Origin: Eledone cirrhosa
Taxonomy: Eukaryota
Reading direction: 5' to 3'
DNA length: 64,000 nucleotides
NCBI GenBank assembly: GCA_964016885.1
Contig: CAXHJY010000151.1
Span: forward strand, 1 to 64,000
Part shown: positions 17,256-42,100 of the stretch, piece after piece
Position numbering within the stretch: position 1 is the stretch's first letter
Layout: each line of letters begins with the position of its first letter
Notes under the pieces: model-generated
Database searches by the model: none
What the model was told of the DNA's origin: nothing
What the model saw: only the letters and a program-made list of their open reading frames with translations
Made by a program: the position numbers and the translations under genes

Positions 17256-17297
<42 letters not shown>

Positions 17298-17414
17298 GTG
17301 TGTGTGTGTATATATATTTATATATATATACACACACGTGTGTGTGTATATATATATATATATATACACGTGTGTGTGTATTTATATATATATATATATA
17401 CACACACACGTGTG

Positions 17415-17445
<31 letters not shown>

Positions 17446-17465
17446 GTGTGTGTATATATATATAT

Positions 17466-17815: not shown

Positions 17816-17846
<31 letters not shown>

Positions 17847-17900
17847 TATAAACGTATAACCCTAACCCAACCCTAACCCTAACCCAACCCCAACCCTAAC

Positions 17901-17932
<32 letters not shown>
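17466..17932. repeat. Composite repeat (CT)n-AGTAGT-(AG)n-ATATAAACGTATAA-(CCCTAA)n
   Basis: About 3 modules here and about 5 at 55059-55755. Contains short telomere-like tracts. Confidence 0.85.
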
Positions 17933-17935
<3 letters not shown>

Positions 17936-18059
17936 TTTTTAACATTGTTTTGTTTTTCTTTTCTTTTCTTATTCAGATGACAAACGGCAGAGGATACAAC
18001 AGAAGAAAAGAACAAAGATAATTATTATTATTATTACTATTATTATTTGTTTTATTATA

Positions 18060-19509: not shown

Positions 19510-19905
19510 ATTCCTTGAATCTCAGTCATTGATGTTGGTTAACTGGAAAGTCCGTTGGAATGAATATCAAGCCACTACCTGCAGCCTCAGATATTCAGGA
19601 CGTATCGGAGGGTTCTTGCTGTTCCAAGCAAGCATGCCTTTTGAAGCGTTCCAAAAAGCGTGAAGGGGCCGATTTTCTTTAACCATCCCTGGAAACTTTT
19701 GGAGATGGACAAAAAACTGGAACACAATAGACCTGACCTGGTGGTTGTGGACAAAGAAAAAAGATCGTGTCTGATTGTGGATGTGGCCTGCCCGTTCAAC
19801 ACGAGAGTGCAAGAGAAGGAGAGGGAGAAAATTAACCGATACCAGGACCTAAAGTGGGAGGTGAAAAGGATTTGGAACTTCCATGAAGTCAAAGTGATCC
19901 CGATT
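19510..19905 (-). mobile_element. Short R4/Dong-like (restriction-like endonuclease) non-LTR insertion with 5' inversion
   Basis: Plus strand encodes HNRPDLVVVD...IVDVACP...EKINRYQDL...VIPI. Minus strand encodes the following C-terminus SISKSF...LQKACLLGTARTLRYVLNI*. Flanked by (TAT)n on both sides. Confidence 0.8.
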
Positions 19906-19906
19906 G

Positions 19907-19947
<41 letters not shown>

Positions 19948-20504
19948 TATTATTTGTTTTATTATAATCAAAATATGCTGTTAGTTAGATCTGCATTGTG
20001 TACATTTTATATAATTTATGCCAGTTCCTTTTCTACATATCGAACATGGCCATTTCCCTGACGGAATAGAGTTTTGTCCTCTTTTCTACTCATCAACACT
20101 CATTCGTGACACAAAGTACAGCCAGCGGCATCATTGCGGACAGACTTAATCCTGATTTGCACTGACACACTGCCTCGCAATACGGAACACCGCACGTCTT
20201 TGATCTTCTTCCCGTCGATCAGCCTCCTTGCCATGCAAAGTACACCTGACGTCTAGCTTCTCTCTTAGCGGCGGCGGCTGTATATTCTTCTCTACTCCCA
20301 CTAATTTTCCAAGCATTCCATGCTAGTCTTTAGTCTCCAATGGCCCGATCTACAGTTTCTGTCTCAACTCGTCTATGCTTGGTCGTTCCCGCACATTGAC
20401 ATTGCACATCCAACGGAGCATGCTTGCTTCATTTCTCTCCAGCCGTCGCATGTCCTCTGCAGTTGCTGCCCGTGTCTCACTACCATGCAGCATCGCGCAT
20501 CTAA

Positions 20505-21382
20505 ACCTGGCCCTTACCCTAACCCCAACCTCTTTGGTTTTCGTTTTCTCGACGGCTAGCCGCATTTCGTGATCCGCCTTTCGATTGCGCTTCCGTCGCG
20601 GCAAAAGAATTGCCTTTCCAGACCGCCGTCGCCCGACCGGACCCATGATAGAAGACGTTCGTTACCGTTGGAGCAACGCAAATTACTCCTCGGTTGACGC
20701 CAAAAACGAACGCCTTCCCGCCTCGCGCCGCCTTCTCCTCGCCGACCCTCGGCCTCGACGATTAGCCACTTTCCGTCACAGCAGTAGATACGCGTCCGTC
20801 GTAATAGCCGTCATTTTAACGCAGGAGAAACGCCTAATTGCCCTGCACCGCGTTTGACGGCGATCTACGACGGCGACGATGCGCGCACTCTTCCTTGCTG
20901 CGACGAAGGTTTCGGCTTTTCGTCGTGGACCCGGTCAGGTCATGCCGCTGACCTCGCGTTACGGCGACGCGAGAAGACGTTCGTTACCGCTGGAGCAACG
21001 CAAATTACTCCTCGGTTGACGCCAAAAACGAACGCCTCGCGCCGCCGCTTCCTCCTCGGCCTCGACGATTAGCCGCTTTCCGTCACAGCAGTAGATACGC
21101 GTCCATCGTAATAGCCGTCATTTTAACGCAGGAGAAACGCCTTGACGACGATATACGACGGGTCGACGACGCGCGCACTCTTTCTGCTGCGACGAAGGTT
21201 TTGGCTTTTCGTTGTGGACCCGGTCGGGTCATGCCTCTGACCTCGCGTTGCGTCGCCACCGCCGCGGCGGGCTTGGGTTTAGCCGTAGCTACCCTCGTTT
21301 TGCCAACGGCGACGCGAGAAGACGTTCGTTACCGCTGGAGCAACGCAAATTACTCCTCGGATGAGGCCAAAAACGAACGCTG
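20505..21382 (+). repeat. Diverged copies of the rDNA-spacer/ETS-like sequence, without the 18S piece
   Basis: Shares long blocks with 27491-28900, including 3 copies of GACGTTCGTTACCG.TGGAGCAACGCAAATTACTCCTCGG. Preceded by a short CCCTAA-like tract. Copy at ~58327-59204. Confidence 0.9.
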
Positions 21383-21459
21383 AAGAGATATTGTCCATGG
21401 ATATCGGGAATTTTACCCGCCCTAGATAGATAGATAGATAGGGATGTATGTATGTATGT

Positions 21460-21501
<42 letters not shown>

Positions 21502-21880
21502 GTATGTATCTTTCTCATTCTCTCTGTATGTATGTATGTATGTATATATATATAATTATATATTTATAGACATCCTGAAAGCTTTTTAAATGTCTGAGAG
21601 ATTGGCTAAATATGTTTTGCAGGTATGACCAGTAAGAGAGAGGTAAGTTATTTCAAAACAATTCTTTGACCATTATTTTAAGGTACTATCTCAGTGTATT
21701 TTTAAATTGACCTCTTGATAGGATGAAATGACCTGTATAATTTTTTTCATATTTAGATGGAATAGAAGAAAAACAAGAAAAATGAAATGAATTCAAACAG
21801 AAAATATACACCAATGCCAATGGAGGTATGATTTCAGTTTAATCTTAACCTAATGACCACTTTACAGAGTGTACTGGATA

Positions 21881-21961
<81 letters not shown>

Positions 21962-22399
21962 AGGAAGCTCCAACCGTTAAGGTTGTCTTTCCATTTATTA
22001 ATATATTGTGTATTTACTCCACTAAACTGTTGAGTGCTTTATATCAGTTATAAAAAAATTTCAGCTTGTTGAATCCCAAAATAGTTGTTGAAACAGCCAC
22101 AGCTCAGCCGTCGGGGTCCTGAATATTTATCATATATATATACGTATGAGTGTGTGTGTTTTGAGAATTAATAATTATATAAACAAGTTTGTAATGAACA
22201 ATTTATTTCTTATCAAAACTGTATAAACATGATATTATTTACAGTAAGAATAACAATAATAATGATGGTTTCTAGTAAAGGTGGAAGGCCAGTAATTTGG
22301 GGGAGGGGAAAGTTGATTAAATCGAAGAGAGAAAGAAAGAAAAAACAGAACGGGAAGGAGAGGGGATGGCAAGAGGTCCGGTGTCGCAGGAGAGAGGGG

Positions 22400-22910
22400 A
22401 GGGTGGTTGAGCTTTGAGTCTAGGGCAAGAGGGCAGAAATGCTGCGCCCCACGGATAAGACGGCAAAAATATTCTCGCGGACGATGGCCAGAGATACCCA
22501 ATGCAACAACCACCCAACCTCGCGGTGTTCCCTCCTCAGATGGGCTGCTGACTCTCCGATCTTTTGGAGGAGCTCGGCAGTACAAGGTCCAAGTACTCCT
22601 GGGGTCTCGACGTTGACTGGTGCAGAGAGGAAGTGGCCGGACAATCCTCGGTATTTGTTTATTTTACGTTCTTCTGCGAGGTGGGCTGCGATGCCGGGGT
22701 TTGTGACCGAAACGACTTGGAAACGAAGTTGTAGGCGGAGATTGTGTCGTAGCTGGTGGTGTCCCAGATGAGGGACCTACGTCCTTCGAATGGGAAGAGA
22801 GTGATTCCGTCGGGGCGCTTGCCATCTCCGGGACCTGTTGGCCCCAGTTGTGATGGGAAGCCAGCTGCGTCCAGGCTTCTTCTCAATATGTCGTTGACAA
22901 CGACGTGTAT
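22400..22910 (-). pseudogene. CRE-like non-LTR retrotransposon RLE-domain fragment
   Basis: DGKRPDGITLFPFEGRRSLIWDTT and downstream F.APVNVET.GVLGP...LAI.R.N motifs, frameshifted. Confidence 0.7.
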
Positions 22911-23454
22911 CTATTCAATAATTATTTGAATATTGAAATTTTAGGTTTAACTACCTTTTAAACCAAATACATTAAGAAAGGCATGACCAACACCACATCA
23001 TTTTTATTTCTATTTTGAAAGTAGGTTTATAAGTATTAAATTTCAGTAGATTCTTATATCCTTCATGGTGGTCTGGTGGGAGATACGAGAGATGGTGGAG
23101 GTTCTGGTCTGGGGTTCAATCCTGCTCAGGAGATACTCTAAGGGGGTTCATACTAAACTTCTTCAGTGTTTCTTATCTCTAGAGACAAATATATATACAT
23201 AAGGTAATCTGGTAAAGTTGTTAGAACATCACATAGAATTCTTTGTAGTATTTTTTCCAGTTCTTCAATCTGAGTTCAACTTTACTTTTCTTCCATTCGG
23301 GGTTGATAATAACGTACCAGTCAAATACTAGGGGTTAATTCTTCCTCTATATCTCTTTCTCACTCTCTGTCTGTTTTATTAAGACCTGGAGAGGTGATGT
23401 ACTCTACCAGGTTTTATAATGAGTGATGGGGTCATACCTGCCTGCTACACCTCT

Positions 23455-23775
23455 GTGTACTAAGTGTAGCATATTATATCCTTGTTCAGGGCCTTCCTGA
23501 CATTACTGTGTACTAAGGGTAGCATTTTATATCCTTGTTCAGGGCCATCTTAACATTGCTGTGTACTAAGTGTAGCATATTATATCCTTGTTCGGGGCCT
23601 TCCTGACATTAGTGTGTACTGAGTGTAGATTTTAACATCCTTGTTCTGGGCCTTCCTAACATTACTGTGTACTGAGTGTAGATTTTAACATCTTTGTTCA
23701 GAGCCTTCCTTACATTACTGTGTACTAAGTGTAGCATTTCATATACTTGTTCTGGGCCTTCCTAACGTTACTGTG
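23455..23775. repeat. 53-bp minisatellite (~6 copies)
   Basis: Unit ~TGTGTACTAAGTGTAGCATATTATATCCTTGTTCAGGGCCTTCCTGACATTAC. Confidence 0.9.
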
Positions 23776-23779
23776 GAAA

Positions 23780-24555
23780 TAGTAGTTTATATCCAATATG
23801 TAATATAGATATGGATTCTACAGGACTAAAACTCATTAATATGAGGGGTATTAGTAGATTATATGCCATATTTAATAGAGAAATGGCTTCTACAAGACTA
23901 AAACTCATTAATATGAGGGGTATTACAGTTTATATGCCATATTTAATACAGAAATGGCTTCTAAAGGACTAGAACTCTTTAAATTGAATAAAATAGTAGT
24001 ATATATCCTATGTTTAATACAGAAATGCCTTCTAAAGGACTCATTAATATGAGGGTATTAGTAGATTATATAACATATTTAATACAGAAATGGCTTTTAA
24101 ATTCAGGGACTCGTTAATTTGATGGAAATAGTAGTGTCTATGCAATATTTAATACAGAAATAGCTTCTACAGGACTAAAACTAATTAATATGAGGGGTAT
24201 TAGTAGTATATGTGCCATATTTAATACAGAGATGGCTTCTAAATGGAGGTATCTCATTAATTCGATTGAAATGGTAGTGTATATGCAATATTTAATACAG
24301 AAATAGCTTCTACAAGAATAAAACTCATTAATATGAAGGTTATTATTACATTATATGCCATATTTAATACAGAAATCGGTTCTAAAGGACTAGAACTCTT
24401 TAATTCAAATCAAATAGTAGTATAAAGCAATATTTACTACAGAAATGGCTTCTACAAGACTAAAAATCCTTAATATGAGGGGTATTGTTAGATTATATAC
24501 CATATTTAATACAGAAATGGCTTCTAAATGAAGAAATCTCTTTAATTCGATAGTA
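23780..24555. repeat. ~71-bp AT-rich minisatellite (~10 copies)
   Basis: Recurrent ATATTTAATACAGAAATGGCTTCTA...ATTAATATGAGGGGTATT. Confidence 0.88.
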
Positions 24556-25207
24556 ATAGTAATAATAATAATAGTAATAGTAATAATACAGCCAATTTTC
24601 CACGCAATACTTTTAGTTAGCACCCCGAACGCATAATTGGGAATATAATCACTTATTTCCTAATGTTTGTTGAGTGAGTTGGGAAAAAAAACTTGGGAAA
24701 TATATTTTCAGGGTCTCAAAATCTTAAAGAGAAAAAAAAGTCCTGTGGAAGGTAGCAAAACAATTAGGAAGAAAATGGTTTGAAGTTGGTTGGTGAGTAT
24801 AAGATTACAGTATCTTGTTGATTTCTATAAAGTTTACTTTTAACTGAATTGGTAAAAATGGATAAATTAGAAGACACAATATAATAACTAATATTGTCTT
24901 CTAAAACAGGGAATAAAAATATGTTGGTGTATTGGGGGGGGGGGGGGGTAAACATGTGAGTTAATGGGAATGTTTTTGTTTGTTTTTATTGAAACATATT
25001 CAATCTACAGATAGGTTGTTATAGTTATTTAGTCTCGGGTCTGCCATTATCTGCAGATTTATAATTGAGGGGTGTTCCAGGTGTGACCACCCTACATTAT
25101 TCCTAGAGATTGTTACTCCTTCATTCTTCAGTCATCTTGGTCTTCTTATGAGATGGTGGTGTAGTCTTATTTATTGTTAAGGTTATGGTCTTCCTTTGTC
25201 CACACTC

Positions 25208-25249
<42 letters not shown>

Positions 25250-25519
25250 AAAGGCTTCCTTCTCTGGAAAAAGATGATTTAATATTCACAACCATCTGTC
25301 TAATTGTTTTCTGATGAGAATAAAGTTAATCTTGCTTGTATGTCTACCTGATCAAATGACTGGCTGATATCTTGAAGTCATTTACACCACAGAACTGTAG
25401 GAGTCTTGATCCCTCAAGCCATACCTCTAGCCATCATGTACTCCAAAAGAGTCTCACCTTGGTGCTACTCAACATGTCCATTAAATTTAGCAGCAAGGAT
25501 GCCCTCTTCTTAGTGAGAG

Positions 25520-26280
25520 ACAACTACAAGAGAGGTTCTTAGAGAAGAATAAGCCACTATAGTTAACTTTTGTTGACATAGAGAACCCCGATCTGTCATC
25601 TGGTGGTCCTTAAGGAAACTAGGTGTAGGGGAATGGCTTGTGAGGACAGTGCAAGCTATGTACAAGGGTGCTGTCAGTAAAGTGAGAGGAGGAATTCCAG
25701 AAACAAAGTAGGTGTACATCAGGGTTCGGTCCTCAGTCCGCTCTTGTTCATTATAGTCCTCCCTCCCTCCCTCCCTCCCTCCCTCCAAGCCATAACAGAG
25801 GAGGAGTAGTTTAAGACTGGATGCCCATGGGAACTTCTCTATGCTGACGATCTGGTTCTTATAGCAGAATCAGTAGAGGAGCTAGCTAGAGAATAAATTC
25901 TGGCTATGGAAACAGCAGTAGTTGGAATCAAGAAGACTGAGAGTGAACCTAGCTAAGACAAAAGTGTTTATAAGTAGAAGAGAGGACAAAACTCTGATTC
26001 TGTCAGGGAAATGGCCATGTTCGATATGTAGGAAAGGAGTTGGCATAAATTCTATGAAATGTAGTACGCAATGCAGATCTTGGCTACACAAGAGATGTAG
26101 TGGGATAGCAGGAAAACTGACTGACAGGTAGGGAGAAATACGTATGCAGTAGATGTACAGGGAAATTTGACAGAGATTGCAGTGATAGACACATTTTTCA
26201 AATGCAGGTGGGATCTATAGAGGGAGTTGATAGCTTCTGATACCTAGGTGATCAGATTAGTAAGGGAGGAGGGTGATATA
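25520..26280 (+). pseudogene. Decayed RTE-like RT core followed by a PHD-like Cys/His domain
   Basis: HQGSVLSPLLFIIVL, CPWELLYADDLVLIAES, then PCSICRKGVGINSMKC.TQCRSWLHKRC. Confidence 0.8.
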
Positions 26281-26804
26281 AAATATATTGTTATCATGAC
26301 TGTCTTTATTATTTAAATTACCTCTGTCTATTTACAGATTTTACAGAGTGTACTGGGTGCTTTTATGATGGGAGCAGCAACTCTATACGATTTTACAGAG
26401 TGTACTTGGTGCTTTTATCATGGCACATGGCAGCAGCAGCAGCAGCAACTACGATTTTACAGAGTGTACTTGGTGCTTTTTACTCTGACATCAGCACTGA
26501 GGAAGTTGTCATATTTTCAGCTAAATTAATGAGTAGAAAAACCAAGTTTCTGCTACAAAAAATTCTCAGATTCAAGGGAGACATTCAGTTTAAGTATGGT
26601 ATACTGTCACTAAGGCAGCAAATTGGCAGAGTCGCTAGAATATCAGATAGCATTCTTTACATTATTTGTTTCAGCTCTCTGTTCTCTCAATTCAAATCCT
26701 GCTCAGGTCAACTTTGCCTTTCATCCATACAAAATAGATTAATAAAAGTACCAGTGTATTACTGGGGTCAATTCTTCTTCTAACTCTTCTGCACTTCCAT
26801 TCTC

Positions 26805-26841
<37 letters not shown>

Positions 26842-27403
26842 GCTTCTTTAGAACACATCTGCTGTATTCAGACCTGGAGCGGAGATGGGCTCCACCAAGT
26901 TTTAAAAATTGCCCTTTAAGCGCTGTATGTCAATATGGTGCCCCTATGATTCCCTCCCTCAGGAGTTATGGGACCATAGATACTGTCAATTGTAAAGAAT
27001 AACAGAGATATTCAGTGCTAGTGTGGTGTTCTGTCAGTTGTGGAGATTGATGAATCTAAACAGAAATATCAACAGCACTTTTCATTTCTGAGTAACACAT
27101 TTGTTACCAAGTGCTGCATGGCTGGAATGAAAATCAGTGCTGTGAAAACCAAGACATTCATCCTCTCAAGGAAGCTTGTGCAGTGCACTCTACATGTAAA
27201 TGGAGTCCCACTGAAGCAGGTAGAAAAGTTCATGTATCTCGAAGCTGTGTTCACGAGTGATGACAGAGACGGCAAAGGCACAACACACAACAGAAGAAAA
27301 GAACAATGACAATTATTATTATTATTATTATTATTATTATTTGTTTTATTAGTTTTATTATAATAAAAATTGTGCTGTTAGTTTGCTTGCTATACCATCA
27401 TGT

Positions 27404-27490
27404 ACCCTAACCCTAAACCTAACCCCAACTCCAACTCTGACCCTAAACCTAACCCCAACCCCAACCCTAACCCTAACCCTAACCCTAACC
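27404..27490 (+). repeat. Interstitial telomere-like tract, C-strand (CCCTAA/CCCCAA)
   Basis: About 14 hexamers, ending in near-perfect (CCCTAA)n that abuts the 169-bp array. Confidence 0.9.
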
Positions 27491-28580
27491 CACGATAGAA
27501 GACGTTCGTTACCGCTGGAGCAACGCAAATTACTCCTCGGTTGACGCCAAAAACGAACGCCTTCTCGACGGCTAGCCGCATTTCGTGATCCGCCTTTCGA
27601 TTGCGCTTCCGTCGCGGAAAAAGAATTGCCTTTATAGGCCGCCGCCGCCCGACCGGACCCACGATAGAAGACGTTCGTTACCGCTGGAGCAACGCAAATT
27701 ACTCCTCGGTTGACGCCAAAAACGAACGCCTTCTCGACGGCTAGCCGCATTTCGTGATCCGCCTTTCGATTGCGCTTCCGTCGCGGAAAAAGAATTGCCT
27801 TTATAGGCCGCCGCCGCCCGACCGGACCCACGATAGAAGACGTTCGTTACCGCTGGAGCAACGCAAATTACTCCTCGGTTGACGCCAAAAACGAACGCCT
27901 TCTCGACGGCTAGCCGCATTTCGTGATCCGCCTTTCGATTGCGCTTCCGTCGCGGAAAAAGAATTGCCTTTATAGGCCGCCGCCGCCCGACCGGACCCAC
28001 GATAGAAGACGTTCGTTACCGCTGGAGCAACGCAAATTACTCCTCGGTTGACGCCAAAAACGAACGCCTTCTCGACGGCTAGCCGCATTTCGTGATCCGC
28101 CTTTCGATTGCGCTTCCGTCGCGGAAAAAGAATTGCCTTTATAGGCCGCCGCCGCCCGACCGGACCCACGATAGAAGACGTTCGTTACCGCTGGAGCAAC
28201 GCAAATTACTCCTCGGTTGACGCCAAAAACGAACGCCTTCTCGACGGCTAGCCGCATTTCGTGATCCGCCTTTCGATTGCGCTTCCGTCGCGGAAAAAGA
28301 ATTGCCTTTATAGGCCGCCGCCGCCCGACCGGACCCACGATAGAAGACGTTCGTTACCGCTGGAGCAACGCAAATTACTCCTCGGTTGACGCCAAAAACG
28401 AACGCCTTCTCCACGGCTAGCCGCATTTCGTGATCCGCCTTTCGATTGCGCTTCCGTCGCGGAAAAAGAATTGCCTTTATAGGCCGCCGCCGCCGCCCGA
28501 CCGGACCCACGATAGAAGACGTTCGTTACCGCTGGAGCAACGCAAATTACTCCTCGGTTGACGCCAAAAACGAACGCCTT
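27491..28580 (+). repeat. 169-bp GC-rich tandem array (6 full plus 1 partial), rDNA spacer/ETS-like
   Basis: Units start at 27491, 27660, 27829, 27998, 28167, 28336 and 28508 and are nearly identical. Lies ~360 bp upstream of an 18S 5' end. Confidence 0.93.
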
Positions 28581-28938
28581 CCGGTTCGGGCGACGTAAAA
28601 GTCTGTAGCCTTTTCGCCGATCCTCGACGATTATCCGCCTTCCGAACAACCGCCTTTCCGCCGTCACAGCAGTAGGTACTCGTCCGTCGTAATAGCCGTC
28701 ATTTTAATGCAGGAGAAACGCCTAAATGCACTGCGATTGACGACGATCTACGACGCGCTTACTCTTCCTTGCTGCGACGAAGGTTTCGTTCGGCTTTTCG
28801 TCGTGGACCCGGTCAGGTCATGCCGCTGATCTCGCGTTGCGTCGTTACCGCTGGAGCAACGCAAATTACTCCTCGTTTAACGCCAACATCGAACGCGCTT
28901 CGGTTCTCGGTCGTCGTTGTTTTGTTTCGTGCGGAAGA

Positions 28939-29124
28939 TACCTGGGTGATCCTGCCAGTAGTCATATGCTTGTCTCAAAGCTTAAGCCATGCAAGTGGAA
29001 GTTCATGCCGTAAACGAAAATGGTGAAACCGCGAATGGCTCAGGAACCGGATCTAATCCTCGGGACCGTATTCCTCACCGCGAGGAGAGGATAACTGTGG
29101 CAATTCTAGAGCTAATACATGCAA
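28939..29124 (+). rRNA. 18S rRNA 5'-terminal fragment (~185 nt); not a complete gene
   Basis: TACCTGGGTGATCCTGCCAGTAGTCATATGCTTGTCTCAAAG.TTAAGCCATGCA ... GTGAAACCGCGAATGGCTCA ... GGATAACTGTGGCAATTCTAGAGCTAATACATGC matches the universal eukaryotic SSU start. Confidence 0.93.
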
Positions 29125-29130
29125 TTGAGA

Positions 29131-32100
29131 TCGGAGAGGGAGCGATCCGTCTGCTTGATTCCGATAACGAACGAGACATTCGTATCCGAAAGAACGTTTG
29201 TCTGGAAACTGGTGCAGTCAGTGAGTCGAAAAAAAAATATCTCGGTGGTAGTAGCAAATATTCGAACGAGACATTCGTATGCGAAAGAACGTTTGTCGGT
29301 GGTAGTAGCAAATATTCGAACGAGACATTCGTATGCGAAAGAACGTTTGTCGGTGGTAGTAGCAAATATTCGAACGAGACATTCGTATGCGAAAGAACGT
29401 TTGTCTGGAAGTGGCGATCCATGCCCGGTGGATAGTTGGTTCCGGGTTTTACTATGATTGTTGCAAAACAAAAACTTAAAGGGATTGACAGAATTTGCGA
29501 TTCCGGAGAGAGGGCGATCCGTCTGCTTGATTCCGATAACGAACGAGACATTCGTATCCGAAAGAACGTTTGTCTGGAAACTAGTGAGTCAGTGAGTCGA
29601 AAAAAAAATATCTCGGTGGTAGTAGCAAATATTCGAACGAGACATTCGTATGCGAAAGAACGTTTGTCGGTGGTAGTAGCAAATATTCGAACGAGACATT
29701 CGTATGCGAAAGAACGTTTGTCTGGAAGTGGCGATCCATGCCCGGTGGATAGTTGGTTCCGGGTTTTACTATGATTGTTGCAAAACAGAAACTTAAAGGG
29801 ATTGACAGAATTTGCGATTACGGAGAGGGGGCGATCCGTCTGCTTGATTCCGATAACGAACGAGACATTCGTATCCGAAAGAACGTTTGTCTGGAAACTG
29901 GTGAGTCAGTGAGTCGAAAAAAAAATATCTCGGTGGTAGTGGCAAATATTCGAACGAGACATTCGTATGCGAAAGAACGTTTGTCGGTGGTAGTAGCAAA
30001 TATTCGAACGAGACATTCGTATGCGAAAGAACGTTTGTCTGGAAGTGGCGATCCATGCCCGGTGGATAGTTGGTTCCGGGTTTTACTATGATTGTTGCAA
30101 AACAGAAACTTAAAGGGATTGACAGAATTTGCGATTACGGAGAGGGGGCGATCCGTCTGCTTGATTCCGATAACGAACGAGACATTCGTATCCGAAAGAA
30201 CGTTTGTCTGGAAACTGGTGAGTCAGTGAGTCGAAAAAAAAATATCTCGGTGGTAGTAGCAAATATTCGAACGAGACATTCGTATGCGAAAGAACGTTTG
30301 TCGGTGGTAGTAGCAAATATTCGAACGAGACATTCGTATGCGAAAGAACGTTTGTCTGGAAGTTGCGATCCATGCCCTGTGGATAGTTGGTTCCGGGTTT
30401 TACTATGATTGTTGCAAAACAGAAACTTAAAGGGATTGACAGAATTTGCGATTCCGGAGAGGGGGCAATCCGTCTGCTTGATTCCGATAACGAACGAGAC
30501 ATTCGTATCCGAAAGAACGTTTGTCTGGAAACTGGTGAGTCAGTGAGTCGAAAAAAAAAATATCTCGGTGGTAGTAGCAAATATTCGAACGAGACATTCG
30601 TATGCGAAAGAACGTGTGTCGGTGGTAGTAGCAAATATTCGAACGAGACATTCGTATGCGAAAGAACGTTTGTCTGGAAGTGGCGATCCATGCTCGGTGG
30701 ATAGTTGGTTCCGGGTTTTACTATGATTGTTGCAAAACAGAAACTTAAAGGGATTGACAGAATTTGCGATTCCGGAGAGGGGGCGATCCGTCTGCTTGAT
30801 TCCGATAACGAACGAGACATTCGTATCCGAAAGAACGTTTGTCTGGAAACTGGTGAGTCAGTGAGTCGAAAAAAAAATATCTCGGTGGTAGTAGCAAATA
30901 TTAGAACGAGACATTCGTATGCGAAAGAACGTTTGTCGGTGGTAGTAGCAAATATTCGAACGAGACATTCGTATGCGAAAGAACGTTTGTCGGTGGTAGT
31001 AGCAAATATTCGAACGAGACATTCGTATGCGAAAGAACGTTTGTCTGGAAACTGGTGAGTCAGTGAGTCGAAAAAAAAATATCTCGGTGGTAGTAGCAAA
31101 TATTCGAACGAGACATTCGTATGCGAAAGAACGTTTGTCGGTGGTAGTAGCAAATATTCGAACGAGACATTCGTATGCGAAAGAACGTTTGTCTGGAAGT
31201 GGCGATCCATGCCCGGTGGTAGTTGGTTCCGGGTTTTACTATGATTGTTGCAAAACAGAAACTTAAAGGGATTGACAGAATTTGCGATTCCGGAGAGGGG
31301 GCGATCCGTCTGCTTGAATCCGATAACGAACGAGACATTCGTATCCGAAAGAACGTTTGTCTGGAAACTGGTGAGTCAGTGAGTCGAAAAAAAAATATCT
31401 CGGTGGTAGTAGCAAATATTCGAACGAGACATTCGTATGCGAAAGAACGTTTGTCGGTGGTAGTAGCAAATATTCGAACGAGACATTCGTATGCGAAAGA
31501 ACGTTTGTCTGGAAGTGGCGATCCATGCCCGGTGGATAGTTGGTTCCGGGTTTTACTATGATTGTTGCAAAACAGAAACTTAAAGGGATTGACAGAATTT
31601 GCGATTCCGGAGAGGGGGCGATCCGTCTGCTTGAATCCGATAACGAACGAGACATTCGTATCCGAAAGAACGTTTGTCTGGAAACTGGTGAGTCAGTGAG
31701 TCGAAAAAAAAATATCTCGGTGGTAGTAGCAAATATTCGTATGCGAAAGAAAAGATCTCGGTGGTAGTAGCAAATATTCGAACGAGACATTCGTAGGCGA
31801 AAGAAAAATATCTCGGTGGTAGTAGCAAATATTCGAACGAGACATTCGTATTCGAAAGAACGTTTGTCTGGAAGTTGCGATCCATGCCCGGTGGATAGTT
31901 GGTTCCGGGCTTTACTATGATTGTTGCAAAACAGAAACTTAAAGGGATTGACAGAATTTGCGATTCCGGAGAGGGGGCGATCCGTCTGCTTGATTTCGAT
32001 AACGAACGAGACATTCGTATCCGAAAGAACGTTTGTCTGGAAACTGGTGAGTCAGTGAGTCGAAAAAAAAATATCTCGGTGGTAGTAGCAAATATTCGAA

Positions 32101-34170
32101 CGAGACATTCGTATGCGAAAGAACGTTTGTCGGTGGTAGTAGCAAATATTCGAACGAGACATTCGTATGCGAAAGAACGTTTGTCTGGAAGTGGCGATCC
32201 ATGCCCGGTGGATAGTTGGTTCCGGGTTTTACTATGATTGTTGCAAAACAGAAACTTAAAGGGATTGACAGAATTTGCGATTCCAGAGAGAGGGCGATCC
32301 GTCTGCTTGATTCCGATAACGAACGAGACATTCGTATCCGAAAGAACGTTTGTCTGGAAACTGGTGAGTCAGTGAGTCGAAAAAAAAATATCTCGGTGGT
32401 AGTAGCAAATATTCGAACGAGACATTCGTATGCGAAAGAACGTTTGTCTGGAAGTGGCGATCCATGCTCGGTGGATAGTTGGTTCCGGGTTTTACTATGA
32501 TTGTTGCAAAACAGAAACTTAAAGGGATTGACAGAATTTGCGATTCCGGAGAGGGGGCGATCCGTCTGCTTGATTCCGATAACGAACGAGACATTCGTAT
32601 CCGAAAGAACGTTTGTCTGGAAACTGGTGAGTCAGTGAGTCGAAAAAAAAAATATCTCGGTGGTAGTAGCAAATATTCGAACGAGACATTCGTATGCGAA
32701 AGAACGTTTGTCGGTGGTAGTAGCAAATATTCGAACGAGACATTCGTATGCGAAAGAACGTTTGTCTGGAAGTGGCGATCCATGCCCGGTGGATAGTTGG
32801 TTCCGGGTTTTACTATGATTGTTGCAAAACAGAAACTTAAAGGGATTGACAGAATTTGCGATTCCGGAGAGGGGGCGATCCGTCTGCTTGATTCCGATAA
32901 CGAACGAGACATTCGTATCCGAAAGAACGTTTGTCTGGAAACTGGTGAGTCAGTGAGTCGAAAAAAAAAATATCTCGGTGGTAGTAGCAAATATTCGAAC
33001 GAGACATTCGTATGCGAAAGAAAAATATCTCGGTGGTAGTAGCAAATATTCGAACGAGACATTCGTATGCGAAAGAACGTTTGTCGGTGGTAGTAGCAAA
33101 TATTCGAACGAGACATTCGTATGCGAAAGAACGTTTGTCTGGAAGTGGCGATCCATGCCCGGTGGATAGTTGGTTCCGGGTTTTACTATGATTGTTGCAA
33201 AACAGAAACTTAAAGGGATTGACAGAATTTGCGATTCCGGAGAGAGGGCGATCCGTCTGCTAGATTCCGATAACGAACGAGACATTCGTATCCGAGAGAA
33301 CGTTTGTCTGGAAACTGGTGAGTCAGTGAGTCGAAAAAAAAATATCTCGGTGGTAGTAGCAAATATTCGAACGAGACATTCGTATGCGAAAGAAAAATAT
33401 CTCGGTGGTAGTAGCAAATATTCGAACGAGACATTCGTATGCGAAAGAACGTTTGTCTGGAAGTGGCGATCCATGCCCGGTGGATAGTTGGTTCCGGGTT
33501 TTACTATGATTGTTGCAAAACAGAAACTTAAAGGGATTGACAGAATTTGCCATTCCGGAGAGGGGGCGATCCGTCTGCTTGATTCCGATAACGAACGAGA
33601 CATTCGTATCCGAAAGAACGTTTGTCTGGAAACTGGTGAGTCAGTGAGTCGAAAAAAAAATATCTCGGTGGTAGTAGCAAATATTCGAACGAGACATTCG
33701 TATGCGAAAGAACGTTTGTCTGGAAGTGGCGATCCATGCTCGGTGGATAGTTGGTTCCGGGTTTTACTATGATTGTTGCAAAACAGAAACTTAAAGGGAT
33801 TGACAGAATTTGCGATTCCGGAGAGGGGGCGATCCGTCTGCTTGATTCCGATAACGAACGAGACATTCGTATCCGAAAGAATGTTTGTCTGGAAACTGGT
33901 GAGTCAGTGAGTCGAAAAAAAAATATCTCGGTGGTAGTAGCAAATATTCGTATGCGAAAGAAAAGATCTCGGTGGTAGTAGCAAATATTCGAACGAGACA
34001 TTCGTAGGCGAAAGAAAAATATCTCGGTGGTAGTAGCAAATATTCGAACGAGACATTCGTATTCGAAAGAACGTTTGTCTGGAAGTTGCGATCCATGCCC
34101 GGTGGATAGTTGGTTCCGGGCTTTACTATGATTGTTGCAAAACAGAAACTTAAAGGAATTGACAGAATTT
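29131..34170 (+). repeat. Tandem array of 15 rRNA-mosaic units (typically 317 bp, range 263-518) with an internal 54-bp subrepeat
   Basis: Each unit has 18S-like GATTCCGGAGAGGG, ATTCCGATAACGAACGAGAC and GGTTCCGGG...GAAACTTAAAGG.ATTGAC, plus 28S-like ATCTCGGTGGTAGTAGCAAATATTCGAACGAGA. Confidence 0.92.
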
Positions 34171-34194
34171 TCGAATCGACATCAACTCGGCTAC

Positions 34195-34550
34195 GGCTAT
34201 CCCGTCGAGTACGAGAGTATCGCGGGATCAGAGCAACGGTTTGCTAGGCTGCCTCTGAGCGATAACGGCTGAACGCCTCCTCTAAGCCGGAACCCTAGCC
34301 GGACCCGAGTTGTTTTTCGACAAGCGTCTCGACCTTCTTAAGGCCCATGCCTTAGTTTGGCGATTGCCGTCCGTTCGCCGACGGCGGCAGCGTCAGCGGA
34401 AATGCCATTCTGTGACGACTACGACGATTCGTCGTCGTCGTCGTCCATTCGATTTCCTGAAAGAGATAGAGACTAAAGTGATCAAATTGTTCGGAGTTAC
34501 GTGCTTAGTAGAGCAGCTACCACACTGCAATCTATTGAGAGTTTTCTGAC
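34195..34550 (+). rRNA. Diverged 28S rRNA 3'-terminal fragment (sarcin-ricin loop to 3' end)
   Basis: AGTACGAGAG (34208-34217), CTGAACGCCTC..TAAG, and AGAGCAGCTACCACACTGCAATCTATTGA occur in the order expected for the metazoan LSU 3' end. Confidence 0.82.
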
Positions 34551-35574
34551 GAACGATACAATCCGCCCACGTGGCGCCAGAAAGGGAGAAGAAAAGAAAA
34601 GTTAGACGCCGCCGATCGATCGGTTCGTTGTTTTACGTGTACACAGCTTGTGTGTGTGTCTGTATGTGATACAAGCCGCCTATCCGTCTTCCAAGTAAGT
34701 TTTGTGTGTAGACTGCGGAAAGAAATCCAATCCGCCGTCTAGGCGGTTCTGCCGCCGACCCATACTTTTGCGAGTCGCTCCCGGGAAAGACAGGCGGCAA
34801 GACGGCGTGTATACACGACGCCTTCCGTCTTCCGCCTCGAACCCGGGCAAACGTTCCTTTATTCGTCCACGCCTTCCCGCTTCGATCGCGAGAAAGTAAT
34901 CAATCTGTTTTGTGTGTGTGTCTGTGTGTGATACAAATTTGTTTTCTTAATTTGATAACCATGAATTGTTTCAACACCGGCCCTTTTCAGGGCCACTTAT
35001 ATTTTCAATAATCAGTTTAAATGGGTTGCACCGTAGCCACTTGGTAATACACTGCAAATCTCCCGTCAATCTATGAAGGTTTTGTAGTAGATTAGATCAA
35101 AACACAATCAGCAAGACAGTAATGGAATGAATAATATAAACATTTGTTTATAATTAAAGCCTTAAGATGTCCCTCCCTCCCTCCCTTCCTCCCTTCCTTC
35201 CTTCCTTCCTTCCTTCCTTACGATATACACTTTAATAACATTGAAACTTATTTAATAAGTTTAAATTTTAAACACTTTTTATTCAGACGTACCGCGATAA
35301 GTAACTAGATATGTTCTAACGAATAATCCGCGATGTGGCGAGGATTACCGCGATAGGAAATTAGATACGTTCCAAAGAAATATCCGCGAAAAGTGAACCG
35401 CGATATAGCGGGTTCACCAGCCAGTGTATTACTGGTACTTTATTTTATCGACCCCCATAAGGATGAAAGGCAAAGTTAACTGTGCAATAACAAAGGGAGA
35501 TAACCTCGTCTTTTTTTTTTTACGGAGTTATTTCCCTTTAAATTTTATCTATTACTTATGATGATACAATTTAA

Positions 35575-35707
35575 TCAGTTCTTAGCTGTCGAGACACTGC
35601 ATCCTTTAAAACCTCCATGGAACAAGCTACCTGCAACAGTTGTTAGCTGTCGAGACACTGCATCTTTTAAAACCTCCATGGAACAAACTACCTGCATCAG
35701 TTGTTAG
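35575..35707 (+). repeat. Two 61-bp tandem units derived from a CR1 ORF2 3' end
   Basis: TTAGCTGTCGAGACACTGCATCCTTTAA...CATGGAACAA.CTACCTGCA matches the reverse complement of ~14250-14310. Confidence 0.8.
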
Positions 35708-35975
35708 GGTCTGAGTTCAAATCACGCCGAGGAGGTTAACTTTGCCTTTCATCCTTACGGGGTCGGTCGGAAAACGAACCATTCCCGGTTCGCTTTCGAA
35801 GCGGGTTTCCGAAAACAGCGCTTCTCTCGACCGGGCCCGTCGTCCGCTCGGCGGTGGTTTTCATCGTCCCAGGCACGGCTAACAGGCGGAGACGGGACAA
35901 ACGCGCGTGTTCCTTTTTTTATCAGCCGCAGCGCCGTTCGTATATATGCTTAGGTTGTTTTTTTTTTAAATATCC

Positions 35976-36190
35976 TAAGTTAAGTTGGGGCTAAGTTAAG
36001 TTGAGGTTAAGTTGAGTTGGGGTTAAGTTAAGTGGGGGTTAAGTTAAGCTGGGGTTAAGTTAAGTTGAGGTTAAGTTAAGTTGGGGTTAAGTCAAGTTGG
36101 GGTTAAGTTAAGTTGGGGTTAAGTTAGGTTGGGGTTAAGTTAGGTTGGGGTTAAGTTAAGTTGGGGTTAAGTTAGGTTGCGGTTAAGTTA
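35976..36190 (+). repeat. G-rich telomere-variant repeat, 16-bp unit (TTAAG TTA[A/G]G TTGGGG)n
   Basis: About 13 units read directly from the sequence. Confidence 0.9.
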
Positions 36191-39100
36191 CATTCGCCGC
36201 CGGACTTCAGCTTCCTCATTTAGCATGGGCAGTTTTTCTTGAAAATCACACCACACACAGCAAATGTGTGTCCGCACATGTACCAGTAATTACAGATCGA
36301 TTCCGGTGAAAATTCACTGAAAACGGGCCATCCGGCCCTGTGCGTCGATCGTGGGCCGGCCGGATGTTGACGGATCGATGTGTAATTAGAAGTACATGTG
36401 CGGACACTCATTGGCTGTGCGTGGTATGCATTTCAGCAAGATATCTCCGTAACATCAAGAGTTATGGCTGTGGAGGCACACCTAGTCAAACGTAAACAAG
36501 GTCTGGAGCGTTTACGCTTCGCGATTTTGTTTACGTTTGACTAGGTGTGCCTCCACAGCCACAACTCTTGATGTTACGGAGATATCTTGCTGAAATGCAT
36601 ACCGCGCACAGCCAATGAGTGTCCGCACATGTACTTCTAATTACACATCGATCCGTCAACATCCGGCCGGCCCACGATCGACGCACAGGGCCGGATGGCC
36701 CGTTTTCAGTGAATTTTCACCGGAATCGATCTGTAATTACTGGTACATGTGCGGAGACACATTTGCTGTGTGTGGTGTGATTTTCAAGAAAAACTGCCCA
36801 TGCTAAATGAGGAAGCTGAAGTCCGCCGGCGAATGGTGTGCTTCGAAGAAAACTAATTCGAAAATGACCGTTTGCAGGCGGAGTAACCTTTTCGATCGTG
36901 GGCCAGCCGCCCGTGGTGGGATCCATCTGTAATTACTGGTACATGTGCGGACATACATTTGCTGTGTGTGGTGTGATTTTCAAGAAGAACTGCCCATGCT
37001 AAATGAGGAAGCTGAAGTCCGCCGGCGAATGGTGTGCTTCGAAGAAAACTAATTCGAAAATGACCGTTTGCAGGCGGGGTAACCTTTTCGATCGTGGGCC
37101 AGCCGCCCGTGGTGGGATCCATCTGTAATTACTGGTACATGTGCGGACACACATTTGCTGTGTGTGGTGTGATTTTCGAGAAAGACTGCCCATGCTAAAT
37201 GAGGAAGCTGAAGTCCGCCGGCGAATGGTGTGCTTCGAAGAAAACTAATTCGAAAATGACTATTTGCCGGCGGAATCACCTTTTCGGTCCTGGTCCGGCC
37301 GGATCTTGCCGGATCGATCGGAAATTTGTGGACCATGTTCGGAAGGCCATTGTGCATGTGTGGTGAAAAAAATTTGTGTCGAAATCTTCTCGGAAAATAA
37401 CGGATCGCCGGCGGAGATTGCCATTTCGATCGTGGGCCGGCCGGATCTTGTCGGATCGATTCGGACATATGTGCATCGTGTTCGCAAGGCCCTTGTCTAT
37501 GTGTGGTGTGATTTTCATAAAGAAATTCCGAAAAACCCAGTTTTAAATCTGATTTCGCCAAAGAATTTTGGCTATCAGATCGGGTTGAAAGGTATGGTTT
37601 CAGGTCGATCTGAAAGTCTAAAATGGAATTCACTCGGTTAGCTAACTATTGATATTTCGGAGATATCTTTCTGAAAATCACACCACACACTCCCAATGAG
37701 TGTCTGCACATGTACCAGTAATTACAGATGGATCCCACCACGGGCGGCCGGCCCACGATCGAAAAGGTTACTCCGAAGCACACCATTCGCCGGCGGAATT
37801 CATTTAGCATGGGCAGTTTTTCTCGAATATCACACCACACACAGCCAATGAGTGTCCGCACATGTACCAGTAATTACAGATGGATCCCACCACGGGCGGC
37901 TGGCCCACGATCGAAAAGGTTACTCCGCCTGCAAACGGTCATTTTCGAATTCGTTTTCTTCGAAGCACACGATTCGCCGGCGGACTTCAGCTGCCTCATT
38001 TAGCATGGGCAGTTTTTCTCGAAAATCACACCACACACAGCAAATGTGTGTCCGCACATGTACCAGTAATTACAGATCGATTCCGGTGAAAATTCACTGA
38101 AAACGGGCCATTCGGCCCTGTGCGTCGATCGTGGGCCGGCCGGATGTTGACGGATCGATGTGTAATTAGAAGTACATGTGCGGACACTCATTGGCTGTGC
38201 GTGGTATGCATTTCAGCAAGATATCTCCGTAACATCAAGAGTTATGGCTGTGGAGGCACACCTAGTCAAACGTAAACAAAATCGCGAAGCGTATACGCTC
38301 CAGAGCTTGTTTACGTTTGACTAGGTGTGCCTCCACAGCCATAACTCTTGATGTTACGGAGATATCTTGCTGAAATGCATACCACGCACAGCCAATGAGT
38401 GTCCGCACATGTACTTCTAATTACACATCGATCCGTCAACATCCGGCCGGCCCACGATCGACGCACAGGGCAGAATGGCCCGTTTTCAGTGAATTTTCAC
38501 CGGAATCGATCTGTAATTACTGGTACATGTGCGGACACACATTTGCTGTGTGTGGTGTGATTTTCACGAAAAACTGCCCATGCTAAATGAGGAAGCTGAA
38601 GTCCGCCGGCGAATGGTGTGCTTCGAAGAAAACTAATTCGAAAATGACCGTTTGCAGGCGGAGTAACCTTTTCGATCGTGGGCCAGCCGCCCGTGGTGGG
38701 ATACATCTGTAATTACTGGTACATGTGCGGACACACATTTGCTGTGTGTGGTGTGATTTTCGAGAAAGACTGCCCATGCTAAATGAGGAAGCTGAAGTCC
38801 GCCGGCGAATGGTGTGCTTCGAAGAAAACTAATTCGAAAATGACTATTTGCCGGCGGAATCACCTTTTCGGTCCTGGTCCGGCCGGATCTTGCCGGATCG
38901 ATCGGAAATTTGTGGACCATGTTCGGAAGGCCATTGTGCATGTGTGATGAAAAAAATTTGTGTCGAAATCTTCTCGGAAAATAACGGATCGCCGGCGGAG
39001 ATTGCCATTTCGATCGTGGGCCGGCCGGATCTTGTCGGATCGATTCGGACATATGTGCATCGTGTTCGCAAGGCCCTTGTCTATGTGTGGTGTGATTTTC

Positions 39101-42100
39101 ATAAAGAAATTCCGAAAAACCCAGTTTTAAATCTGATTTCGCCAAAGAATTTTGGCTATCAGATCGGGTTGAAAGGTATGGTTTCAGGTCGATCTGAAAG
39201 TCTAAAATGGAATTCACTCGGTTAGCTAACTTTTGATATATCGGAGATATCTTTCTGAAAATCACACCACACACTCCCAATGAGTGTCTGCACATGTACC
39301 AGTAATTACAGATGGATCCCACCACGGGCGGCCGGCCCACGATCGAAAAGGTTACTCCGAAGCACACCATTCGCCGGCGGAATTCATTTAGCATGGGCAG
39401 TTTTTCTCGAAAATCACACCACACACAGCCAATGAGTGTCCGCACATGTACCAGTAATTACAGATGGATCCCACCACGGGCGGCTGGCCCACGATCGAAA
39501 AGGTTACTCCGCCTGCAAACGGTCATTTTCGAATTAGTTTTCTTCGAAGCACACCATTCGCCGGCGGACTTCAGCTTCCTCATTTAGCATGGGCAGTTTT
39601 TCTCGAAAATCACACCACACACAGCAAATGTGTGTCCGCACATGTACCAGTAATTACAGATCGATTCCGGTGAAAATTCACTGAAAACGGGCCATTCGGC
39701 CCTGTGCGTCGATCGTGGGCCGGCCGGATGTTGACGGATCGATGTGTAATTAGAAGTACATGTGCGGACACTCATTGGCTGTGCGTGGTATGCATTTCAG
39801 CAAGATATCTCCGTAACATCAAGAGTTATGGCTGTGGAGGCACACCTAGTCAAACGTAAACAAGCTCTGGAGCGTATACGCTTCGCGATTTTGTTTACGT
39901 TTGACTAGGTGTGCCTCCACAGCCACAACTCTTGATGTTACGGAGATATCTTGCTGAAATGCATACCACGCACAGCCAATGAGTGTCCGCACATGTACTT
40001 CTAATTACACATCGATCCGTCAACATCCGGCCGGCCCACGATCGACGCACAGGGCCGGATGGCCCGTTTTCAGTGAATTTTCACCGGAATCGATCTGTAA
40101 TTACTGGTACATGTGCGGACACACATTTGCTGTGTGTGGTGTGATTTTCACGAAAAACTGCCCATGCTAAATGAGGAAGCTGAAGTCCGCCGGCGAATGG
40201 TGTGCTTCGAAGAAAACTAATTCGAAAATGACCGTTTGCAGGCGGAGTAACCTTTTCGATCGTGGGCCAGCCGCCCGTGGTGGGATCCATCTGTAATTAC
40301 TGGTACATGTGCGGACACTCATTGGCTGTGTGTGGTGTGATTTTCGAGAAAGACTGCCCATGCTAAATGAGGAAGCTGAAGTCCGCCGGCGAATGGTGTG
40401 CTTCGAAGAAAACTAATTCGAAAATGACTATTTGCCGGCGGAATCACCTTTTCGGTCCTGGTCCGGCCGGATCTTGCCGGATCGATCGGAAATTTGTGGA
40501 CCATGTTCGGAAGGCCATTGTGCATGTGTGATGAAAAAAATTTGTGTCGAAATCTTCTCGGAAAATAACGGATCGCCGGCGGAGATTGCCATTTCGATCG
40601 TGGGCCGGCCGGATCTTGTCGGATCGATTCGGACATATGTGCATCGTGTTCGCAAGGCCCTTGTCTATGTGTGGTGTGATTTTCATAAAGAAATTCCGAA
40701 AAACCCAGTTTTAAATCTGATTTCGCCAAAGAATTTTGGCTATCAGATCGGGTTGAAAGGTATGGTTTCAGGTCGATCTGAAAGTCTAAAATGGAATTCA
40801 CTCGGTTAGCTAACTTTTGATATATCGGAGATATCTTTCTGAAAATCACACCACACACTCCCAATGAGTGTCTGCACATGTACCAGTAATTACAGATGGA
40901 TCCCACCACGGGCGGCCGGCCCACGATCAAAAAGGTTACTCCGAAGCACACCATTCGCCGGCGGAATTCATTTAGCATGGGCAGTTTTTCTCGAAAATCA
41001 CACCACACACAGCCAATGAGTGTCCGCACATGTACCAGTAATTACAGATGGATCCCACCACGGGCGGCTGGCCCACGATCGAAAAGGTTACTCCGCCTGC
41101 AAACGGTCATTTTCGAATTAGTTTTCTTCGAAGCACACCATTCGCCGGCGGACTTCAGCTTCCTCATTTAGCATGGGCAGTTTTTCTCGAAAATCACACC
41201 ACACACAGCAAATGTGTGTCCGCACATGTACCAGTAATTACAGATCGATTCCGGTGAAAATTCACTGAAAACGGGCCATTCTGCCCTGTGCGTCGATCGT
41301 GGGCCGGCCGGATGTTGACGGATCGATGTGTAATTAGAAGTACATGTGCGGACACTCATTGGCTGTGCGTGGTATGCATTTCAGCAAGATATCTCCGTAA
41401 CATCAAGAGTTATGGCTGTGGAGGCACACCTAGTCAAACGTAAACAAGCTCTGGAGCGTATACGCTTCGCGATTTTGTTTACGTTTGACTAGGTGTGCCT
41501 CCACAGCCACAACTCTTGATGTTACGGAGATATCTTGCTGAAATGCATACCACGCACAGCCAATGAGTGTCCGCACATGTACTTCTAATTACACATCGAT
41601 CCGTCAACATCCGGCCGGCCCACAATCGACGCACAGGGCCGGATGGCCCGTTTTCAGTGAATTTTCACCGGAATCGATCTGTAATTACTGGTACATGTGC
41701 GGACACACATTTGCTGTGTGTGGTGTGATTTTCACGAAAAACTGCCCATGCTAAATGAGGAAGCTGAAGTCCGCCGGCGAATGGTGTGCTTCGAAGAAAA
41801 CTAATTCGAAAATGACCGTTTGCAGGCGGAGTAACCTTTTCGATCGTGGGCCAGCCGCCCGTGGTGGGATACATCTGTAATTACTGGTACATGTGCGGAC
41901 ACACATTTGCTGTGTGTGGTGTGATTTTCGAGAAAGACTGCCCATGCTAAATGAGGAAGCTGAAGTCCGCCGGCGAATGGTGTGCTTCGAAGAAAACTAA
42001 TTCGAAAATGACTATTTGCCGGCGGAATCACCTTTTCGGTCCTGGTCCGGCCGGATCTTGCCGGATCGATCGGAAATTTGTGGACCATGTTCGGAAGGCC

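Follow-up and report, generated by a model that had tools for sequence, protein, structure and literature searches.

The window analysed here comprises positions 1–64000 (64,000 nucleotides) of contig C178 of an Eledone cirrhosa assembly that was searched throughout (3.0 Gb, 1796 contigs). It carries on its plus strand, at 29131..34177, a tandem array whose 15 units are stitched together from scraps of the host's own ribosomal DNA (rDNA). This satellite is most likely amplified rDNA debris, and it proved to be larger than first described: the array forms the interior of a gutted rDNA unit, composed in order of 5′ external transcribed spacer (5′ETS) repeats, the 18S 5′ end, the array itself, the 28S 3′ end and 3′ spacer. 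This element belongs in turn to an outer tandem unit of ~38–41 kb, one turn of which spans 5738..47272 and is 98–99% identical to the next. A sequence-only reading had described a tandem array with a 54-bp subrepeat at 29131..34170, and such an array does lie there, but that reading missed both the rDNA flanks and the 38-kb outer repeat. As to origin, we lean towards a silent, neutral rDNA relic that arose by microhomology-guided deletion and switching at the DNA level within tandem rDNA and was then subjected to nested amplification.

Architecture of the mosaic array

The reference was the host rDNA unit on contig C4, with 18S, 5.8S and 28S delimited by Rfam on two of 20 rDNA stretches; a search with a conserved 18S motif located 21 true-rDNA places in the assembly, and the host 18S measured 2872 nt and was GC-rich. 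Short-word mapping to this unit, the alignment by which the sequence-only reading had proposed to be judged, covered 177 of the 263 nt of the minimal array unit in sense and none in antisense (score ≥12); 300 dinucleotide shuffles gave 5.1 nt on average and 34 nt at most. The cover was made up of seven sense donor pieces of 11–54 nt, four from 18S, two from 28S and one from internal transcribed spacer 1 (ITS1), accompanied by one short inverted ITS1 copy. Every assigned piece derives from the host's own rDNA, host-specific ITS1 included, and the modules diverge from the host about as much as the rDNA flanks do (2–8%). The units measure 263–575 bp with an internal subrepeat of 54 or 55 bp, and the module order a-b-I-x-(c-I)n-f-d-e was constant across all 19 elements parsed, the parser having overlooked x in some units.

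The four pieces proposed initially, all said to lie in sense, were each traced to host ribosomal RNA (rRNA) genes. Module a corresponds to host 18S 575–592 (for example 30449..30467, equal to 18S 575–593), and the motif first quoted for it has an exact match in none of the 15 units. Module b corresponds to 18S 2038–2076 (30148..30183, 18S 2041–2076; 38 of 39 bases in the first-unit copy) and module c to 28S 2062–2100 (30244..30282; 38/39). Module d, which we take to include the 3′ strand of the central pseudoknot, was rightly assigned to 18S (1839–1892; 30383..30438), its middle being replaced by unrelated bases. The tally of donors nevertheless rises to at least seven with module I (ITS1 275–293; 30185..30203, 19/19 identical, and invariant in 10 of 10 aligned host ITS1 copies), module f (28S 1375–1392; 29412..29429, 17/18) and module e (18S 1972–1982; 30433..30443, 11/11). 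Module x (30204..30243) is mostly without an assigned donor; its first-unit version includes the seven host bases immediately 5′ of module c, and its 3′ end is an inverted copy of ITS1 293–305. This inverted insert of 13–15 nt sits just 5′ of c and copies the ITS1 bases directly after module I, and the only occurrence of its word within the host unit is on the minus strand, so that the all-sense orientation does not hold. Nor is c fused back to 18S, as had been supposed, for the sequence after it runs into ITS1.

The donors share words at five of the junctions, of 5 nt (a>b), 10 nt (b/c), 4 nt (c>ITS1), 6 nt (d>e) and 7 nt (e>a), whereas only 2.2% of random junctions share 4 nt or more; the remaining ones, namely those on either side of x, the f>d junction and the two outer ones, showed no clear shared word. 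The 5-nt word at a>b is the GGAGC through which these pieces were first said to be joined, but that junction is intact in the first unit only. Across the assembly the b/c-to-I junction occurs 3125 times and the exact d junction 864 times. Protein coding by the array was considered and rejected, its long stop-free frames being repeat artefacts.

The gutted rDNA unit and its amplification

All parts of the element lie on the plus strand. A telomere-like (CCCTAA)n tract (27404..27491) abuts its 5′ end and shares 4 nt with the ETS at a junction read by eye. It is followed by 6.5 copies of a 169-bp repeat from the host 5′ETS (27488..28581; 90–95% identity, with 4–8 copies in other elements), which begin ~200 nt downstream of the last copy of a putative RNA polymerase I (Pol I) start motif in the host, and by further 5′ETS pieces (28582..28894, of which 28622–28853 are 88.7% identical) from which ~800 nt of ETS have been deleted. 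The 5′ETS end then leads into nt 1–191 of 18S (28895..29129; 94.5% to the host, with 18S starting at 28947). On the other side of the array stands the 28S 3′ end, from the last ~460 host nt (34179..34581; RF02543, 61.6 bits), with 29 substitutions in 380 aligned nt and 81 host nt (65% GC) absent. Pieces of the 3′ETS and of the first spacer repeat (34629..34945) end short of the point where the putative start motif first appears in the spacer. The flanks differ from the host by 2–8% substitutions, with an excess of GC>AT changes (24 to 10), and GC-rich stretches have also been lost from them.

The intact coding capacity for rRNA is thus gone: only 191 nt of 18S and ~380 nt of 28S remain in order, and an Rfam scan gave no 5.8S match. 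Each host spacer inspected carries the putative start motif (12 copies in the C4 stretch, 15 in the C12 stretch and 9 in the C25 stretch); the 64-kb window and the element copy on C18 lack it. The motif resembles the plant Pol I start (PMC6589552), and this likeness together with its repetition in the host spacers suggests that it may be the true Pol I start. The element accordingly offers neither the promoter nor the complete 18S-5.8S-28S of a functional rDNA unit.

The 5′ junction of the element was found in 59 copies, 43 of them on C28 (124.7–126.5 Mb), one on C18 and 15 on five small contigs, and these counts are lower bounds because the left edge of the C28 block is an assembly gap. The arrays are 1.3–8.6 kb long (17 of the 19 parsed elements with both ends in view) and contain from 4 to more than 20 units, and the flanks diverge among copies by 0.03–0.11%. 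Copies also decay freely: among the C28 units read, one lacks the 18S 5′ part, and on C18 the 28S end of the copy is truncated. No inserted element was found in the 19 parsed arrays, whose longest unit was 587 bp, and no tRNA genes were found as a driver of the 38-kb amplification.

Several other features lie around the element. A dispersed palindromic repeat fragment (34935..35018, plus strand) scores in Rfam as a histone 3′ stem-loop. A histone-type 3′ end for an array transcript was considered and rejected, the stem-loop being part of the dispersed repeat, with no histone open reading frame beside any of the five dispersed copies read. This repeat carries a canonical-looking histone stem-loop in its arms; beyond the block, 36 copies with one mismatch were counted, and C18 holds 21 of these. 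A second, more diverged 5′ETS-derived block (84–95%) occurs at 20538–21380 and again at 58360–59202, also beginning beside a telomere-like tract. A lone 28S expansion-segment fragment at 35770–35976 (93% to host 28S 684–878) indicates that non-core rDNA pieces also survive in the block. In this outer-repeat turn only, a long interspersed element (LINE), presumably Tx1/L1-like, occupies 13–5523; one of its two long frames measures 679 aa and is open at the 5′ end, and the other measures 1156 aa, with endonuclease, reverse transcriptase (RT) and zf-RVT. On the minus strand, a 957-aa endonuclease-RT frame at 14216–17089 lies inside a TA microsatellite, missing in the next turn and present in a C28 unit. 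A nested repeat spans 36191–46165; it has periods of 196 and 1584 bp, its inverted arms are long, and it gave no Rfam or tRNA match.

Abundance and expression

Read evidence came from four of 24 sequencing runs, at contig level only, and was compared over 33995–35170. In run X1 (organism A, DNA-like), contigs tile the element with 0–1 differences at a depth of ~3950–4100, against ~3570–3700 for true-rDNA-type contigs, where contig depth is not a copy number; this tiling at near-rDNA depth indicates that the element is real and roughly as abundant as rDNA. Run X6, of the same organism and of a kind not recorded, is RNA-like, with 28S at a depth of 3467 against ~14 for the 3′ETS. In this run the consensus array unit reached a depth of 114, ~30-fold below 28S, and no element-specific flank was seen, which is weak evidence since contigs drop rare sequence. 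The array signal in X6 relative to X1 was no greater than that of the neighbouring dispersed repeat; it is thus within possible DNA carry-over and does not demonstrate transcription. Run X17, labelled as RNA, held ordinary 28S pieces only, with no array junction.

A fraction of 0.28–0.38 of the array words was also found in runs labelled as 10 other organisms, while all four sister runs had none, and run X4 (organism B) held the unit at a depth of 17 together with a trace of host-type 28S. These traces were read as cross-contamination, and the idea that the 10 labels reveal orthologues in other species was set aside and not used as evidence. The array junctions had no match in metagenome contigs, eukaryote relatives not being among the sequences searched. 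The repeat traces in runs X4, X5 and X7–X14 could serve as a marker of cross-contamination.

Conservation, modification sites and folding

Conservation was scored on 22 of 24 18S and 8 of 11 28S sequences that were long enough, from 80 metagenome loci. Conservation of the six mature-rRNA pieces exceeded that of random windows (0.85 vs 0.38, p=0.0008), but within the core the excess was not clear (p=0.085). For small nucleolar RNA (snoRNA) sites, yeast modification positions from two sources (Table 1 of PMC5699541; PMC5199042) were registered on yeast-length outgroups and then mapped to the host, a proxy from which the host map may differ; when this registration was checked, 33–36 of 37 positions matched in eight 18S sequences, as did 72 of 74 in the one 25S that could be used.

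The sequence-only reading had located U24-guided sites in module c. Yeast Cm1437, Am1449 and Gm1450, guided by U24 according to the same table-bearing source (PMC5699541), do have their equivalents there, with the same bases, at host 28S 2064, 2076 and 2077, but the Cm1437-equivalent base has been lost in 13 of 35 c copies. Its further suggestion, an enrichment for snoRNA targets, was not borne out: five of 98 yeast snoRNA-guided sites fall in the six pieces, against an expectation of 4.97 for core windows (p=0.52), or of 2.25 when all mature rRNA is taken (p=0.14). Counting only the sites with the same base in the host gave p=0.71 within the core, and with 5-nt padding four of the six pieces touched a site (p=0.035 vs all mature rRNA, p=0.36 within the core). 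None of the mapped yeast sites falls in module a, b or e; vertebrate-specific modification sites presumably lie in these three. A search for host U24 was blank, as were its controls, and is hence uninformative.

The unit showed no special fold (z=0.12), and a structured RNA was rejected on that ground. An antisense box C/D snoRNA cluster was likewise discarded, with no C box on either strand even when one mismatch was allowed and no Rfam snoRNA match. Low predicted pairing was not supported as a cause of the core bias, the pieces being no more single-stranded than random windows (0.33 vs 0.37).

Other rDNA relics and R2 in the host

The host genome contains at least 12 other displaced rDNA relics. 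In 12 such relics, 43 of 48 deletions were of 500 nt or less, and the 43 deletions of 10–500 nt avoid the core, which makes up a fraction of 0.094 of them where 0.305 would be expected (p=0.0002; GC 0.67); this provides a neutral route to core-only remnants. Among 28 break ends in 15 other rDNA copies, four fell within 3 nt of an array junction (18S 588, 28S 2099, ITS1 306 and 307), with 1.7% expected for each (p=0.0013); this test was post hoc, and two of the ends may be one event. Since motifs within c and d had led to them, a pair of small fragments was excluded for bias. The coincidence of break ends and junctions may reflect fragile DNA sites or RNA ends. The foreign flanks at the relic breaks were unrelated to each other and revealed no common mobile element. 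A copy on C2 lacking part of ITS1 was considered as a processed pseudogene and found to be a plain deletion, from 18S 2515 to ITS1 307. A small relic on C28 at ~97.76 Mb (L034:4659–5309) holds two 18S pieces out of order, 1712–2080 followed by 1593–1871, and is an independent sense-orientation backward jump.

In most assembled 28S copies the R2 site carries an insertion of ~1.2 kb (L017:6253–7411; C12, C25, C2, C3, C4, C6 and C7), probably a short non-autonomous R2 derivative. Only one match to an uninterrupted R2 site was obtained across the whole assembly, which suggests that the working rDNA arrays are collapsed in the assembly or that the insertion is removed from RNA. On C2 at ~166.89 Mb (L199:1573–6539), an R2-site insertion of ~5 kb with an open 1214-aa frame (zinc fingers and RT) is a full-length R2-like retrotransposon.

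Origin of the satellite

In the origin that we favour, a host rDNA unit was severed from its putative promoter, leaving the remnant recorded by the flanks, from ~200 nt into the 5′ETS to the first spacer repeat. Its interior would then have shrunk through repeated microhomology-guided deletions or template switches during DNA replication or repair; the junctions themselves can be read, and the enzyme at work and the order of events are inferred. A deletion into the next unit of tandem rDNA would amount to a backward jump in the same sense, scrambling the order while keeping the orientation, and a single fold-back would have produced the inverted ITS1 insert. Judging from the other relics, GC-rich expansion segments may have been lost before anything else, leaving the conserved cores. 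The e>a junction closed a unit of ~263 bp. Slippage and unequal exchange then multiplied the sequence at three levels: the subrepeat of 54 bp, the unit, now present 4 to more than 20 times in an element, and the block of 38 kb (at least 59 copies). The product would yield little or no RNA and would have no selected function, persisting through tandem homogenisation. Fold-back inserts of 5–34 bp have been described at yeast DNA breaks (PMC11724301). Template-switch recombination followed by amplification, which the sequence-only reading had offered as its second option, is supported by the junction microhomology, the inverted ITS1 insert and the nested tandem amplification.

Several points weigh against this account. 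Only 263 of ~11,000 nt were kept, as scraps of 11–54 nt, for which numerous events are needed, and the mapped relics included no intermediate. The bias towards the core holds after GC matching (p=0.0017) and with ITS1 treated as unconserved (p=0.0027), and shared words, tried as its cause, fail to explain it, only 3–8% of shared 5–10-mer pairs having both members in the core. The deletion bias of the relics may partly be length polymorphism among once-functional units, and an element depth of ~4000 against ~3600 for rDNA in one DNA-like run would be a heavy load for debris.

The main rival, possible though clearly the less probable account, is that the unit was stitched by an RT, of R2 or another LINE, jumping between fragments of rRNA or pre-rRNA, with protein-protected core fragments as favoured templates and the resulting cDNA chain captured in a broken rDNA unit, where it met the same neutral fate. 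It would account for seven main pieces that are all in sense and out of order; the host possesses an R2-like element with an open RT frame; the relic break ends near array junctions could mark RNA ends; and R2 proteins template-jump and make snap-back inversions (PMC11371274). The element, however, is not at the R2 site and nothing in the window matches the host R2-site insertion, spacer DNA beyond the 28S end has been kept, and the pieces are not predicted to be more single-stranded than random windows. In addition, junction overlaps of 5–10 nt fit annealing better than end-to-end jumping. Very unlikely, in our judgement, is that the array acts as DNA, either under selection as a decoy or landing pad for nucleases or mobile elements that target rDNA, or as an rDNA-mimicking pairing or chromatin site, with its copy number kept close to that of real rDNA. 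The depth parity with true rDNA, a core bias without explanation, module borders that coincide with the break ends of other relics, and a host rDNA heavily invaded at the R2 site, with a single uninterrupted match in the assembly, all speak for such a role, but the R2 site itself is not in the array, the 19 parsed arrays showed no inserted element (longest unit 587 bp), and the foreign flanks at the relic breaks are unrelated to each other.

The sponge or scaffold for small nucleolar ribonucleoproteins (snoRNPs) and ribosome-assembly factors that the sequence-only reading had envisaged, for which the array would have to be transcribed, is more doubtful still. The three U24-equivalent sites in module c, the bias towards conserved rRNA, the ~3100 copies of the c/b-to-ITS1 junction and the consensus unit contig at a depth of 114 in one RNA-like run agree with it, whereas the missing putative Pol I start, the lack of site enrichment within the core (whether or not the base is the same), modules a, b and e without a mapped site, the 13 c copies that have lost one, the replaced middle of d, an RNA-like signal that does not rise above carry-over, the absence of a special fold and a histone-type stem-loop that is a repeat fragment do not. 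The idea was weakened, on the yeast map and on contig-level data from the four runs. An assembly artefact or a synthetic primer-site construct is scarcely credible and largely refuted: several pieces presumably overlap universal primer sites, and traces occur in runs labelled as 10 other organisms, but the element is tiled, with 0–1 differences, by short-read contigs obtained independently from organism A, bases specific to host rRNA and ITS1 occur in the modules, the number of units varies among the 59 copies, and the traces elsewhere look like cross-contamination, the sister runs being blank. Finally, because the core bias is without explanation, the depth is at parity with rDNA and the module borders lie at relic break ends, a broader idea keeps some, if unlikely, standing: the 38-kb block might be a false rDNA locus under selection, maintained at roughly as many copies as genuine rDNA. 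Its arrays would then display thousands of copies of exactly the conserved sites at which host rDNA is broken or bound, and would soak up rDNA-targeting nucleases or retroelements when acting as DNA, or, when acting as RNA in some tissue, snoRNPs and assembly factors.

Relation to known systems and significance

The rDNA pseudogenes of Robicheau et al. (2017, PMC5381670) resemble this element as displaced and decaying units with ETS, gene and spacer parts; they include near-full-length degraded units and scattered short strings, whereas here the interior is a shuffled micro-mosaic, amplified, with flanks more than 99.9% alike. By its descent from rDNA, its want of intact rRNAs and its tandem, homogenised amplification, the element fits the class of rDNA pseudogenes and rDNA-derived satellites. 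Satellites derived from rDNA spacers in Nicotiana, potato and legumes are tandem, rDNA-born repeats outside the nucleolar organiser that stem from one spacer subrepeat; the 169-bp ETS repeats are alike, and the unit described here instead joins seven 18S, ITS1 and 28S pieces. Mobile elements derived from rRNA, such as SINE28, the 5S short interspersed elements (SINEs), Cassandra and the Pokey intergenic spacer repeats, likewise reuse rRNA fragments (PMC10946416). In contrast to the SINE28 type, 43 of the 59 copies lie in one 1.7-Mb block, with no dispersal, internal promoter or transposon ends seen; no 3′ tail was seen by eye in the array.

R2 and its short, internally deleted forms share this genome and could supply template jumping and snap-back (PMC11371274), but the array lies elsewhere than the R2 site and is without R2 ends. 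Chains of templated insertions from break-induced replication mediated by microhomology (MMBIR), microhomology-mediated end joining (MMEJ) and fold-back are alike in their short pieces joined at microhomologies and their short local inversion; such chains have been described as scars of single repair events (PMC11724301), whereas here the scar is a germ-line repeat unit in at least 864 copies. A CRISPR-like array would be expected to have unique spacers, and here all units reuse the same modules. No satellite of shuffled 18S/ITS1/28S micro-fragments was found in the open literature searched, and genome-paper supplements and subscription journals could hold one.

Taken as debris, the satellite documents with unusual clarity how serial template switching at microhomologies gives rise to a germ-line satellite, every donor being still readable in the same genome; if built by an RT, it would be a natural concatemer of rRNA fragments. 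For this species, the presence of conserved 18S and 28S motifs at hundreds to thousands of copies can distort read mapping, estimates of copy number and rDNA fluorescence in situ hybridization (FISH). If the selected decoy were true, the satellite would represent a new way of protecting or regulating rDNA.

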